From positions 52,640,001 to 52,704,000 of the forward strand of contig NC_045696.1 of NCBI RefSeq assembly GCF_009834535.1: a stretch of 64,000 nucleotides of DNA, given 5' to 3'. Positions 22,898 through 58,200 of this stretch are shown piece by piece; position 1 is the stretch's first letter; the number at the start of each line of letters is the position of its first letter. Both the position numbers and the translations under genes were made by a program. The notes beneath the pieces are model-generated. The model was not told the DNA's origin, did not search any database, and saw nothing but the letters and a program-made list of their open reading frames with translations. This DNA is from Camelus ferus. Taxonomy: Eukaryota.

Positions 22898-23426
22898 TCC
22901 CCCATTCATTTTTCTTCCACTAGCCAACCATAACAAAATAACATACACGCAAAATCTATCAAATGTTTTCCCAAGCAATAATGAGATGAGTCTGAACTTC
23001 ATAAAACCTTCAACTCTTACACCTGTTAGAGGAAGCAGTGGTAGCTAGTTTTTAAACTCTGTAGATAAACTGCATATTAACTATGCACAGTTGAAAGTCA
23101 CATACACCCCAGCTGACATTTCCACCACAAATTATCCATAAAGTTCAGGTTCTTTCAAGGCAGATGGAAAACATTCTGTACGAAAGAAAGTATAAAGGCC
23201 CTTAACCTGGGTCAGCCTACTCAGAGAGATGGAGTCCCTGAAAGATAGATCATCTGTTTATGAAGAGTGAAAATCTCTCCATCCTCAGCTTGTCAGATCC
23301 TTCAGAATCTTTGACATCTCTGAATAGCCCAGTTCAAGGCAGAAAAAAAATGATATTTCCATCTGATGTGGAAATTGACAGTTCTTTAGATTATAGAGAT
23401 GATTGTTTGAGTTCATATAGACTAAG

Positions 23427-23936
23427 GGTTACCCAAAAACTGGGTTTGCCTCTCATTGGGTGTTGAGCCAAAACACAAAACCAAGCCAAATGTCTGGAGA
23501 AGGAAGAATTTGTTATTACTTGGAGCAAATAAGGAGAATACCAGGGATCTTTCCCAAAGCAGTATCTTCCCCTAAACAGCCAAATTGGTGAAGTTGTCAT
23601 GCATATTCATGAGGGTCAGAAGAGATCAACATCCTTATCCCTCAGGTTCCAGCTGATCTGGTGATTGAGCGCTGCAGTCTGATCTTTACCATTGAAACCG
23701 AACTGGGGGTCTTTATAAGTGATGTATTATCTTTGCTATTGTTACTTTTTTTTTAATTTATTGTTGGTTTCTACATTCCTTTGTTCCCTTAAGATCATTA
23801 ATTACTGAGACTTGTTCAAGGACAAGCATTGTGGCGAGGCTTAGATCACAAAATAGCTTTGGCCAAAATTCTCTTCTGTTAAGAAGGCCATGTCTGGTTC
23901 TCTTTCTCCAGGGACTCCCTACCCTATCTGCTTACA
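23427..23936 (-). mobile_element. ERV1-class solo LTR (probably artiodactyl lineage; family uncertain)
   Basis: Minus strand begins TGTAAGCAGATAGGGTAGGGAGTCCCTGGAGAAAGAGAACCAG; 4-bp TSD TAAG at 23423-23426 and 23937-23940. Confidence 0.75.
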
Positions 23937-26900
23937 TAAGAATAGGAGGAAATCTATAAATGGGACAAAGCTTTATGTGGGCTGTGCTAACTGCCGTTCT
24001 GTCTAGAAGAAGCAACCTTAGAAGTTTGAGACTTTGAGAATAAAAGGCCTCTCAGGACCTTCAAGTATGTTAAATCTACTTCAGGGGAGCTGCCCGGACC
24101 ATGGATAGTTTCTGTATAAAGTGCTCTTCTTACTCGCACATCCGAGCTCACCACCTGCCTGAGTGCCTAGGCTGAAACTTTTTCTCTCTGACTTCAAGTA
24201 CCCCCAACAGCAGCTGCCTACCCTGACACCTATCACACCCTCACCTGCCCACCATTAATCCTTATAATCAGTTTCCTGCTCCAGTTGGTTAGATCTGACC
24301 TCACCTGACCTCAAATACCATCTGTTTCTATAGCAGAGCCTGAGGTACATGCACACTGTATGTTATAGCAGTGAGTCCCCCACCACTATCATTTAACTAT
24401 GAGAACGATAAATAAAAAGTAACATGCGTCCACACTCATGTGCACAAACAACATATACATGAACACACACCAACAGCTCAACACTGAAAGCCAATTATCA
24501 GATTGTTGTAAAGCTAATTCCTGGAAAACAGAGGTAATTCTGATCCTTGCCCTTTTCTTGAAAGCTTTAATATAAAGCTTTCTCTTTAGTTTAAAGTTTT
24601 TTCAGGAAATAAGTTTTATAAAATTATTTTTGTGTCTACATGTACCAAAGCACTCAGACAATCCTGATATTTTCATTCAAGTAAAGGAATGCACACAAAA
24701 CAGCTAGTAGATTACCAAATATTTAACTGTTTAATGAAGCGTTATATAGACCCGCCTAGAAAAGCTAAGGAGCACAATGCAATGGTAAAACTTGTAAAAT
24801 CTCACCATTATAGAAATATATGAAAATTAAAGCTGGATATACAGTAAAACAGAATTCCAGTGGGGGGAAAAAAATCAACTAACCCTTTTGAAATACATGA
24901 ACATAATAGATCTAGAATAGACGGTCTAAATATTTGGATGGGGATTTCGGCTAATCCCAAAATGCATAGGTAGAAACATATGTATGTTATTTATATACCT
25001 ACATAAATGTTAAAAAAAATACATGTGGAACTATTTTACTTCTGCTTCTATGTAAAATATAATTTATACCAGTATTCTGTTTAATGCTTTCAAAGAAAAG
25101 TAAGGCCAATTGGAAGGCTCATATAAATGTAGCAGAAAAAACTAAAGCACAGAAAAAAACTGGTTTTCTAATATGACATAATAAATAGGTAAGGATATGA
25201 AAAAGAATGATAACTAAAAAAGTTAAGTACCAGTTGCCTTAAAAATCTGTCACTAACAAGATAAATTGAAGAAAGTAAAAGTAGACAGAAACTAATGGCA
25301 AAAAGCAAGCTGAAGATAAACACTTGGGGAGATGAGTATTCCTAAGTAATCAGAATGAAAGAAATGCATCTGAGCCACAGAAGGCATAAAAACTAGGAGA
25401 CAGCCAACGCTTGGCAGTCTTGTCTGTGTAGCTTTACTGAACTGACCAAACACTGCCAATTTGTTTTATTTTGTTTTCAGCCATCGTAATGGATAGTTAC
25501 TGAGCAATTGATTGTATCATTGTGCAGTTGGTTGGATTTGGTCATTAAGATGGATGAAATGATTGGACCAAGTGTTCATGGTCTGGTGATCTTGGTCACC
25601 TTAATGACCCAGTGGTATTGACTGTGCAGAAACCCGACCACCATGCATTCTTTCCATCTCCAATTGGTATATTCCTATAATCCATGTACTGTCCTTAGAG
25701 CTGTTTCCATGCTGTCGCTATATTTTTTTAAGTCTCAGAGAACTAAGGAGCTGCTAAAGGAGATCTAAAATTAACACAAACCAACAACATAACTATATTA
25801 AGACATACAAATCTGTAAACATATTGTAGATAATGAATTCATGAACACCACCTACTACTGAGATGGTTTTTTAAAAAGGTACAAGATAAACTTTTCCTAT
25901 GAAATTTATTAAATTAAGGTTTGTAGATCCTGACATGCCTTCTTCCATCCCCCACGTCAATATAATTTTAGGTCAAACATTAAGTGTGAATTGGATTCTA
26001 GTAACTTCAGGGTGTGGTGCCCTGATCTCCTGACTACATTCATTAGTGCTACAAACCTACAGGCTTGGTCCTGGCTCCCATCCTGAGCCACTGCTGACTG
26101 AGGCCAGTGAGACATCGAATTAAATCCTGACCTCTAGACCTGAGGCCTAAACATCAGCTGTGGCTCTTGGGTTTTCTTTATGCTTTATAAGTATGCTTTG
26201 CTGCCTCTCAGTTATGAGTGCTGGAATTCCAGGTTGAGCCTTGGATGCCTGGCTTAAATGTATAGCCTATGTTAAAGTACTACCCCTTGACATACTGGAC
26301 CTGGCCATGTTATCTTATTTCTGCTTAACTTCGTCCTCCTTGGTTTGCAACCAGTCATCCAGAGACACTCATCCCCTCCCTACGACCATAGCCCCACTCT
26401 GAACTGTTGTACATCTGTTTGGGGCCTGGACCCCACCTGGCACCTGTCAGCTCTCCACTCCAGTTACTGGAGCCTTGCCCAAACACAGCCTTCTGGTGGG
26501 GATTCTACAACATATGGGCACATCTCCCAGAATCATGACTGCCACCTGCCTAGCTCCCAAGGGCTCACCCACTGCTGTGGCCTGTCTTCCCAGATTGGAT
26601 TTTGTGCCCAAGATTGCTTGAATTATGTCTGAGCTTGCTTCACAATTTCCAGCTGGTCTTTGTCCTTGCCCTTCCTGGTGCTAACTCTATAGTCCATCTC
26701 CTTGGCGCCTACTCCACTGGCCCAGCACTTCTAATATCTAATATGTTTCTCAGGCAAAACTCACTCACACCTCAACCTAGTGAAGGAAACATCAAACTGG
26801 GGACCAAGAAACCAGAGCTTCCAGCAATGTCTTAAACACTGGGCATTTTGACCTTCTTGGTCTTGGTTGTCTGACCTATACAATGAAAGGTGTTGGGGCA

Positions 26901-27364: not shown

Positions 27365-27580
27365 ATAGAAAGAATCTAAAACAGACTATGTGTGTGTGTG
27401 TATATATATATATGTATATCTATATGTATATATATGCATACACATACACACACATATGTACATGTATGTATGTACATATATATGAATCACTTTGTTATAC
27501 ACCTGAAACTAACACAACATTGTAAATCAACTATACTTCAATAAAAATATTATATATATATACACTATCAAAAAAAAAAA
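27365..27580 (+). mobile_element. Short L1 3' end (artiodactyl type) with internal (TG/TA)n microsatellite and poly(A)
   Basis: GAATCACTTTG.TATACACCTGAAACTAACACAACATTGTAAATCAACTATACTTCAATAAAA; TSD AAGAAAGCAA at 27355-27364 and 27581-27590. Confidence 0.9.
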
Positions 27581-37166: not shown

Positions 37167-37844
37167 GCAGGTAAAAGACTAAGACTAAAAGTTAAAAGAA
37201 AAGAAACTCCTGCAAGGGGGAGAGAAAAGGTGAACATAGTCTGTACGTGATTCAATGACACCTTTCTCTCAAGACCGGTCATAAAGTGGCAGACTATCTG
37301 ACAGAGCCATTCATAAGGCCTAGTAACTTCTGGGTTTATTATAACAAACAGGGTCATTTTAGTATAAAATTCAAAGAGATCTGAGGCTAGAACTAGGACC
37401 TGGCCCTCACCACTCTTCACCTTCTTCTAGAATGATGTTGTTGCCTAACCTGAGGTCAGGAAGTTACCTGTTACAGACCAACAGGTAACTTCTAAACTAA
37501 AATTATTTAAGAACTTAAATTTAGGCATCTTCTGGGATTAGGTATAAGTGGATCCACTGAAGAGTTGGCTGGGGATCAGGACAGTACTGGTTATTTTATT
37601 TATTTTTATTTTATAAATGTATTTTCTTTTTTGCCAAGATCACATCAGTGTCTACTTTTCTCTTCCTCATTCCTTTGCATTCCTATAACCTCCATTGCTT
37701 AGAGGAAAAATCATGCATTGGAATTTATTTCATGTTATTTAAATTAAATTTGGAATCTTGAGCTCCCTTCTGGGAAGTAGTTTTTAAAGGCTCATTGACA
37801 GACTGCAGTATGTCCAGAGGGAGACATCCAAAATGGTGAGAACT

Positions 37845-37939
37845 AGGGGGAGGGTATAGCTCAGTGGTAGAATGAGTGCTTAGCATGCACAAGGTCCTGG
37901 GTTCAATCCCTAGTACCTCCACTTAAAAAAAAAAAAAAA
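37845..37939 (+). mobile_element. tRNA-Ala(AGC)-derived SINE (camelid Vic-1 type, short form)
   Basis: GGGGAGGGTATAGCTCAGTGGTAGAATGAGTGCTTAGCATGCACAAGGTCCTGGGTTCAATCCCTAGTACCTCCA plus poly(A). A box TAGCTCAGTGG, B box GGTTCAATCCC. TSD AAAATGGTGAGAACT (37830-37844) / AAAGTGGTGAGGACT (37940-37954). Confidence 0.9.
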
Positions 37940-39830: not shown

Positions 39831-40132
39831 CAAAACAGAAACAGACTCACAGACATAGAAAACAAACTTATGGTTACCAGGAGGGAAAAGGGGTTGGAGG
39901 AAAAAATTGGGAGTTTGAGATTTACAGATACTAACTACTACATATAAAATAGATAAACAACAAGTTTATACTGTATAGCACAGAGAACTATATTCAATAT
40001 CTTGTAGTAACCTGTAATGAAAAGAATATGAAAATGAATATATGTATGTGTATGTATGACTGAAACATTCTATACACCAGAAATTGACACAAAATTGTAA
40101 ACTCAGTATACTTCAATTAAAAAAAAAAAAAG
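39831..40132 (+). mobile_element. Young L1 3' end (camelid/artiodactyl type)
   Basis: CAAAACAGAAACAGACTCACAGACATAGAAAACAAACTTATGGTTACC...GTATAGCACAG.GAACTATATTCAATATCTTGTA...poly(A); perfect TSD AAAAGCACTA (39821-39830, 40133-40142). Confidence 0.93.
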
Positions 40133-41435: not shown

Positions 41436-41465
41436 ATGCTGTGCTGTATGAGAAGAACCAAACAG
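41436..41465 (+). CDS. GAP43: GAP43 (growth-associated protein 43 / neuromodulin), first coding exon (codons 1-10); remainder of the gene lies beyond the window
   Basis: ATG CTG TGC TGT ATG AGA AGA ACC AAA CAG = MLCCMRRTKQ, the well-known GAP-43 N-terminal membrane-targeting peptide (palmitoylated Cys3/Cys4). Kozak context ACAACCATGC; phase-0 donor CAG|GTAGAC at 41466. Confidence 0.98.
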
Positions 41466-47350: not shown

Positions 47351-48864
47351 GGATTTTAACTGTGAATAATCTATTTGCTAAATTAATATAGAACTAGGTT
47401 TACAGTCTTTCCGTAAGTTGTGGCATGTCTAAATGGAGAGAACCACCATGAGATTTTTTTTTTTAATCTATTGTTACCAAATTTTGAAGTGGAGCTAATC
47501 ATCACTGATTCTTGCTGTTGACCTAGAGATATGAAAGCTATCAGTTTTGAATGAAATCGAGCATAAAATGCAAAATGAGCCCGTTGATACTGTGTTTCTC
47601 CAAACTACTTCCTTTTACATCCTCCTCCCCCACGAGCCAGCATCTTAGCCCCACTCTGAAGTTAGCAGAGTCCCAGGTTAGACACGTGGTTACCATAATC
47701 CTAGACCTTCTCATGCCCTTCCTTTTAGGCCCTAAGTGCTGACACATGTTACTTTGCTCCACAGCTATTTCAAACAGGCCCTGACTTAATCCCTCACTGC
47801 TCTTATTTGATTTATTTCATTGATTACACAAACTTCAAAAAAAATACACATAGCCTTGGCCTTTGCTCAGGGGCTTATGCTCAGAATTAATTTTAGGTTC
47901 ATTTAGGTTTCTTTTCTTCCCACTGAACTATCCACATAATAATATTTCAAAAAGAGAAATCTTACATGAAGGTAAAAGGAGGTTGAATGGTAAGTAGTCC
48001 CTCAAGTGCCTGGTGAATGACTGAGAATCAGATCAAGTTTATCTTACTTAGGTTTGAATAGGTTGAAGAAATTTGGATTCTCAAGTAGGCCAATTGTGGC
48101 CAATGTGGGGCACATTGTGACCACAGCTTTATAGGAAAATACTATTGGCCAGACTCTCGGTAGTGCATTTTCTCTGACTGAGTTGGCATGGCCTTGAGAA
48201 AACAGTAAGGCAAAATGATCTAGAGATGAAGTTGAGTAGTGTCTCCCAGTCTCCAAACCCTTCTTTTATATCTTGCTCATTGCTCTCAATCTCTTTCAGT
48301 CTCTTTCTTTGAGTTTTCTTATTTTTTCTCCTACTTTCAGGTCCAAGTGGAGTTCTTCTGATAAGTAATACCAGCTCATGCTAATGTTAAGTGGGTCAGG
48401 CCATAAAGGAGAAATGTAAGAAAAAGTCTATACACTCCAACTTTCTAAATAGGTGTTTTAGACAAAGCAGGTATATTAAGCTATGTCTGGTACATAGTAG
48501 CCTCTCAATAAAAAAATATTTATTGAGAGAATAAAAGTAGGAAGGGAGGAATTATTATGATGGACCATTAAGGGATATGGTTTGGTACAGAAGACCATTC
48601 CTATGTCCTATGTACCTATTGAGAGCTGGCTCTGTGTAAATGCACACTCAGCTCTTGGTCCTCCTTTCAAGGTGGTTGTGGCCAAAGTTGTAATTTCGTC
48701 TCCTGTCTACTTAGAACAGAGTGGCACACTTGCAGTGAGTTCAGGTTGTAAATGAGAGTGTGTCTCTCCAGATTTCCTGTTCTTAATTATTTACAGAACT
48801 TATTTCTTTAGATGTTGTTTGTTTAATGTCCTGTTTCATGTCTTTGTAGTGGAATAAACCCTTC

Positions 48865-57653: not shown

Positions 57654-58200
57654 CTGGGTTGTTCAGATTAAACGAAATTTGAGCCAAATTCTCTGGAACT
57701 AAGGAGGGAGCTTTCTTAGGATTCCAGTACAGGGTCAATAGGTTAGACCTAAGTTGGTACAAACAGATTAGAGAACAGACTACTTAGACTAGGGGATAAC
57801 AAAATCTACCAGGCACTCACTAAATATACGTTTTTATTACCTCTGAACTAACATTAAGTGCTGCTGTCTTCTCCACCTGAATGTTTTCTTTCCTCCATCT
57901 GCCAAACTATGTTCTGCCTCCAAAAATTCTGCCGAAAAATCAACTCTTTTATAGAATCATTCCAGACATTTCCTCATTCTCCATCTGTATCCATACTGCA
58001 GTCACTGTAGTCACCTCCTTAGTGATTCCTCTTCCCCCATATCATTTTTGTGTGTGTGTATATGTTGCACATATATATGTATACACACATAGAGAGAAAG
58101 AAAGGAGAGAGGGCATATTTATATATGTTTTCTACCTATTATCCTTTCCTGTTTCCCCAGGCACTGCTTAACTTTCAGCACTGGGTTCTCCGCTGTTTTA

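Follow-up and report, generated by a model that had tools for sequence, protein, structure and literature searches.

The locus considered here raises the question of why a 108-nt hairpin without a single indel stands upstream of GAP43, and whether it is a relic, a functional RNA, a DNA element or an accident. The window, by which we mean the whole 64-kb stretch of Camelus ferus DNA that was analysed, is mammalian non-coding DNA surrounding the 5′ end of this gene. On balance, we favour the reading that the hairpin is one of the dispersed copies of an ancient hairpin repeat of mammals, most likely MER135, and that it is a slowly decaying relic yielding no regular microRNA. A preliminary description of the sequence had placed the hairpin about 16 kb upstream of GAP43, and this position was borne out. 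An exact match to the GAP43 start motif puts the start codon at 41436 on the + strand, 15.8 kb downstream of the hairpin, and coding exon 1 lies on the same strand as the G-U-favoured fold.

41436..41465, + strand: first coding exon of GAP43 (context); exact match of the start motif, then a GT donor

The surroundings contain several other landmarks. The region at about 23400-24300, upstream of the hairpin, looks by eye like an insertion of LTR type. Two stretches that resemble each other and end in poly(A), at 27386-27580 and 39850-40130, presumably correspond to L1 3′ ends; both also score as ungapped hairpins via their TA/TG microsatellites, and the second shows 1 G-T against 11 A-C oppositions.

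Positions 25521-25570 oppose 25628-25579 about one axis (coordinates sum to 51149) with zero indels, around an 8-nt loop at 25571-25578, and they include a perfect 10-bp helix (25540-25549/25600-25609). Among the 50 opposed positions, 30 are Watson-Crick pairs, 12 are G-T, 2 are A-C and 6 are other oppositions. This recount is identical to the one given earlier (30 Watson-Crick pairs, 12 G-U pairs and 8 mismatches, 2 of them A-C), and the single axis, the loop and the perfect helix are all as originally claimed. The hairpin is composed of the following parts.

25540..25609, + strand: core stem-loop of 70 nt with the 8-nt loop; 31 opposed positions, namely 21 Watson-Crick, 6 G-U, 2 A-C and 2 other
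25540..25549, + strand: perfect 10-bp helix, 5′ arm; TTAATGA on the - strand
25600..25609, + strand: perfect 10-bp helix, 3′ arm; TTAATGA on the + strand
25521..25539, + strand: outer stem, 5′ arm; 19 positions, namely 9 Watson-Crick, 6 G-U, 0 A-C and 4 other
25610..25628, + strand: outer stem, 3′ arm

From base to loop, the core passes from the perfect 10-bp helix through a weakly paired middle segment (pairing 0.3) into an apical helix of 9 bp.

As a palindrome, the hairpin scores 28.9 bits under a strand-symmetric model, against a maximum of 24.1 in 40 block-shuffled windows, and 33.4 bits against a maximum of 24.5 under a + strand RNA model, whose weights were chosen once the counts had already been seen. 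It ranks second in the window (after a microsatellite) by the symmetric model and first by the + strand RNA model, and it falls outside the top 12 under the - strand model. Among the ungapped 50-bp hairpins of the 64-kb window that contain 27 or more Watson-Crick pairs, 33 in all, it comes third, the two ranked above it being AT-rich or microsatellite. The gap-free, single-axis palindrome goes beyond chance. Pure chance is unlikely because the single-axis score lies above all 40 of the 40 composition-preserving shuffles, and the same result weighs against the idea that the hairpin arose as an inverted duplication private to this locus, or folds by chance in a patch rich in G+T, with neither family nor function, its G-U excess stemming from its having been chosen by eye. 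We consider that idea quite improbable. On its side, G+T makes up 0.64 of the hairpin, which places it among the top 3% of tiles, and the 60 unpaired nt upstream are equally rich (0.65).

When folded in isolation, the 108-mer adopts the structure as drawn on the + strand at -41.6 kcal/mol (z -4.16, with 0 of 200 shuffles as good), versus -28.5 kcal/mol (z -3.49) on the - strand. A z of -4.16 is also reached by 11 other tiles (9 loci) among the 45 that were z-scored, these 45 being the tiles of best composition-corrected energy out of 7100 folded; the + strand tile at the hairpin's own offset is not among the best 25 of them. The folding z-score alone is not exceptional for the window, and the 11 matching tiles are what a chance or private fold would lead one to expect. 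Short perfect or near-perfect inverted repeats at 48439-48582, 58033-58158 and 37423-37548, with folding z of -4.7 to -6.2, outdo the hairpin upstream of GAP43 in this measure.

Folding of both strands against shuffled controls, as had been proposed in the preliminary description, gave a split outcome. The + strand does better for the 108-mer, whereas the - strand is favoured for the 78-nt core (z -3.91 versus -3.01 on the + strand) and for a 150-nt context (z -2.91 versus -2.04). No folding signal is seen in a 266-nt context (z -0.63 and -1.12). In terms of pairing probability, the core within its flanks reaches 0.97-0.99 on the + strand, and in a 260-nt context 0.99 versus 0.18 on the - strand, and the core and apical helices on the + strand keep 0.96-1.0 across four contexts of up to 440 nt. 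The pairing of the outer stem falls from 0.95 to at most 0.02 once flanks are added, its 5′ arm then re-pairing with about 25633-25647. The 70-nt core is predicted to fold stably if the + strand is transcribed. A competing 19-nt pairing between 25548-25566 and 25641-25659 (74% complementarity) is found mainly on the - strand. Folding with DNA parameters gave weak structures for either strand (z -1.23 and -1.93), which lends no support to a role as a single-stranded DNA hairpin.

The strand bias of the G-U pairs was the most suggestive point of the preliminary description, which held that neutral decay of a DNA palindrome should give G-T and A-C oppositions about equally and that the excess of the former hints at constraint on a + strand RNA stem. 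In a strand-symmetric decay simulation, counting the palindromes that retain 28-32 Watson-Crick pairs, a G-T minus A-C difference of at least 10 arose in 157 of 87,467 (337 in either direction), and the observed 12 versus 2 (p 0.013) is accordingly rare. The hint itself holds in part, in that the excess is unlikely under neutrality, but it is sensitive to the choice of ends, and a reverse skew of 1 G-T versus 11 A-C occurs elsewhere in the window in the hairpin at 39988, one of the 33 best ungapped. Extending the ends by 6 nt gives 13 versus 4 (p 0.049), while the inner 31 positions, which make up the stable core, give 6 versus 2 (p 0.29); the remaining 6 G-U pairs, half of the total, sit in the outer stem. 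Transition-type oppositions account for 14 of the 20 that are not Watson-Crick, close to the 11.1 that an old palindrome is expected to have when its decay is simulated, and this counts towards an ancient repeat. The opposite skew at 39988 again suits a chance or private fold. We take the G-U bias to be probably genuine, though of modest size; by itself it does not separate inheritance from selection acting today. It may have been inherited from the repeat ancestor; because a polarised ancestral consensus would pass the skew on, the excess need not mean constraint on the copy upstream of GAP43.

Alternatively, the hairpin could be an unannotated functional RNA, repeat-derived or not: a + strand transcript would be spliced in at 25481 and its stem cut by Microprocessor at about 25547/25604, or the stem would serve as a structured part of a neural lncRNA or of an upstream exon of GAP43. 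We regard this as unlikely. The rarity of the G-U excess under neutral decay, the lower energy of the + fold and the persistence of the core within its flanks on the + strand, and not on the - strand, all speak for it, but by z-score both the 78-nt core and the 150-nt context do better on the - strand, and the skew of the stable core is only 6 versus 2. In the hairpin of a microRNA gene, 16 or more of the roughly 22 duplex positions are expected to pair, and the loop should have no fewer than 8 nt; here, 18 of 22 are paired at 25547-25568 and the loop has 8 nt. The Microprocessor motifs, namely a basal UG, an apical UGU or GUG and a downstream CNNC, are supportive and not obligatory. A candidate cut at 25547/25604, which would release a 58-nt precursor, has the basal UG and an apical GUG/UGU in the loop, and together with the 18 of 22 paired positions it counts towards a functional RNA. 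Against this, the basal UG occurs at only 2 of the 13 candidate cuts tried, for which the apical motif is present, and CNNC (+16 to +18) at 0 of 13. The pre-miRNA reading in the preliminary description draws some support from motifs, namely the basal UG and the apical GUG/UGU, whereas the missing CNNC counts towards a relic.

A functional RNA would also gain from an acceptor-like site a short distance upstream.

25459..25480, + strand: polypyrimidine tract ending in CAG, 3′ splice site-like, 40 nt before the hairpin

Under a crude, frequency-based splice-site score, the site ending at 25480 comes 67th (top 0.7%) when the 9192 AG sites of the two strands are ranked. The tract may belong to the same element as the hairpin. 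However, a strong donor is lacking nearby: by the crude score, the best candidate up to 700 nt away, at 26012, lies in the top 3.6%. Of 24 sequencing runs, 20 contain part of 25300-25900, 6 of them RNA. The highest shares among the RNA runs, 0.39 and 0.25, belong to a single study, and these runs are not evidence of expression.

The prospect of a known Rfam RNA came to nothing at the gathering threshold on the hairpin, and this too tells against a functional RNA. The best microRNA-type scores on it are 17.7 of 144 for MIR2630 and 16 of 68 for mir-2985, and the sub-threshold matches (5, 9 and 10 at E up to 10) were set aside as generic hairpin or chance matches. The only Rfam match of the window at the gathering threshold is a tRNA-like 72-mer at 37850-37922 on the + strand (Rfam tRNA, 43 bits; tRNA-Ala(agc) by ARAGORN). 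This 72-mer probably belongs to a tRNA-derived SINE, as its head, and not to a tRNA gene.

Within the 64-kb window, blastn and nhmmer found no second copy and only the self-palindrome (E 0.006), as is expected for a family of 500-800 copies per genome. The collections scanned with patterns were prokaryotic, metagenomic and viral or phage, and could not contain mammalian copies. Scans with the stem motif gave 3 viral and at least 120 metagenome loci; these 123 were rejected as relatives, their best nhmmer E being 0.19, and they look like microbial inverted repeats of GTCATT units. Clusters of short GTCATT(AA) units, both direct and inverted, occur on many of the metagenome and viral contigs, in hairpins that look intergenic. 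These clusters are a widespread microbial repeat unrelated to the hairpin. A stricter stem pattern had 0 matches in prokaryote genomes, the loci found with the flank pattern (12 + 1) show no likeness beyond the pattern itself, blastn of the hairpin against phages gave no match, and the 136 microbial and viral loci that were fetched include neither a relative nor a mammalian orthologue. For a private or chance fold, the lack of a relative is a point in favour, as drawn from microbial or viral collections that could not contain mammalian copies. Around 25521-25628 no target-site duplication was seen, the 8 flanking bases being different and a TA duplication absent; the true ends of the element may differ from these coordinates.

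MER135 was named as the first candidate before any comparison with pre-mir-224 was made. Copies of MER135 were reportedly frequent among the conserved predicted hairpins of Piriyapongsa et al. in 2007. By eye, 25571-25584 agrees with positions 38-51 of pre-mir-224, in the sequence reproduced in PMC8131722, at 10 of 14 positions without gaps and with the two axes coinciding. The stem motif agrees at 6 of 7 positions on each arm of that sequence, likewise by eye, the arms not being independent. Nominal binomial p values are 0.0009-0.004 for the loop and 0.003 for the stem, with ends picked by hand and uncorrected. On the 3′ arm a scored miR-224-3p motif aligns in register, but 521 of 6396 tiles of the window do equally well, and Rfam searches of the hairpin up to an E of 10 gave no mir-224 match. 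An alignment to pre-mir-224 with five gaps placed by hand (39 of 61) was set aside, as its p value ignores gaps. Were the hairpin a private or chance fold, one would have to put its in-register likeness to pre-mir-224 down to coincidence. We judge it likely that the hairpin is a copy of some ancient palindromic family, and fairly probable, on sequence likeness, that this family is MER135.

The published record of MER135 suits such an origin. Table 1 of PMC10671384 derives the two arms of miR-224 from it, as do PMC13739402 and PMC9409130, and Table 1 of PMC5753468 lists it as an unclassified ancient repeat. As given in PMC3500645, MER135 is mammal-wide and absent in chicken, with 504 (Censor) or 808 (RepeatMasker) human copies; 179 of the 504 or 272 of the 808 lie within conserved regions, where 4.79% is expected (7-fold over), and about two thirds lie outside. 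One supplement of a preprint on human dsRNA (PMC11838218) mentions neither GAP43 nor MER135, and its tables S7 and S8 could list the human orthologue. In the literature searched, no papers were found on the hairpin locus or on the structure of MER135, for which subscription papers, Dfam notes and tables S7/S8 of PMC11838218 could be sources, nor any on short hairpin words or the origin of miR-224, nor, among the papers listed, relevant ones on such families or on RNAs upstream of GAP43.

A third possibility is that the hairpin acts as DNA, as a distal GAP43 enhancer with inverted homeodomain sites 68 bp apart, its fold-back being a by-product of how the element arose; we hold this to be distinctly unlikely. 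The word in question, TTAATGA, is homeodomain-site-like. The longest fully Watson-Crick stretch of the hairpin is the one that holds it, and 2 of the 3 YTTAATGAC sites in the 64 kb are the hairpin's own pair, but three such sites are within chance (22 of 100 shuffles), and the G-U excess would be left unexplained. At the level of the family, PMC10637000 reports that the cis-regulatory activity of MER135 is raised upon overexpression of homeobox factors (adjusted p 0.009 and 5e-5 for ALX3 and CDX2, 2 of 290 rows). This favours a DNA element, yet the result hinges on the candidate MER135 assignment, and a reviewer of that paper asked whether the effects were marginal. A functional RNA and a DNA enhancer are both compatible with a MER135 origin.

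Our preferred reading, a decaying copy of an ancient hairpin repeat, would account for these observations as follows. The ancestral element would already have been a one-strand (RNA-type) hairpin, such that each copy started out G-U-rich on one strand, with a stem already resembling that of a pri-miRNA. From these a small number, mir-224 for example, would then have been exapted. The copy upstream of GAP43 would fold when transcribed through in the sense direction of GAP43, and would most likely give no regular mature microRNA. As a third of MER135 copies are conserved, a function for this copy is nevertheless quite possible. A stronger proposal, which we find very doubtful, is that MER135, instead of being the remains of a DNA transposon, consists of RNA-polarised units (acceptor plus G-U stem) spread or kept as RNA, and that upstream of GAP43 the present copy, selected for its RNA stem, marks an unannotated + strand exon or gives rise to small RNA.

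A mere relic copy, if that is what it is, would be ordinary, and most likely the hairpin adds one more copy to an already known kind of repeat. If a one-strand G-U bias and an in-phase acceptor held family-wide, they would explain the origin of an unclassified and strongly conserved mammalian repeat as well as why MER135 seeds microRNAs, and GAP43, a growth-cone gene, would gain an unrecognised upstream RNA or enhancer.

Taken against known systems, the hairpin resembles a canonical pri-miRNA in its stable, imperfect stem of about 31 bp, its 8-nt GUG/UGU loop, its basal UG (at 25547) and its 18 of 22 paired positions, but it differs in lacking CNNC, in its weak middle (pairing 0.3) and in matching none of the Rfam families. 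The foldback MITEs from which hairpin miRNAs derive, such as MER81, MER91C, MARNA and others in Table 1 of PMC10671384, are similar in being repeat-borne palindromes able to serve as precursors. Unlike these, the hairpin ends without a target-site duplication, and its strand-skewed mismatches are not what a perfect terminal inverted repeat is expected to accumulate when it decays neutrally. With the Eulor, UCON and Crypton families it shares the character of ancient, low-copy and often conserved non-coding repeats, as these appear in PMC5753468, but no sequence link to them is evident. Of the options offered in the preliminary description, an ancient palindromic element fits best, with MER135, on a likeness seen by eye, and not Eulor, UCON or Crypton as the nearest candidate. 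Even here there are differences: the stem motifs are 68 nt apart in the hairpin versus 61 in pre-mir-224, so that any Microprocessor register would be shifted by these 7 nt, and the predicted seeds differ from those of miR-224. What the hairpin has in common with mir-224 and MER135 is an imperfect hairpin of about 70-80 nt in mammalian non-coding DNA, with a shared stem motif and, by eye, loop identities to the published pre-mir-224 sequence.
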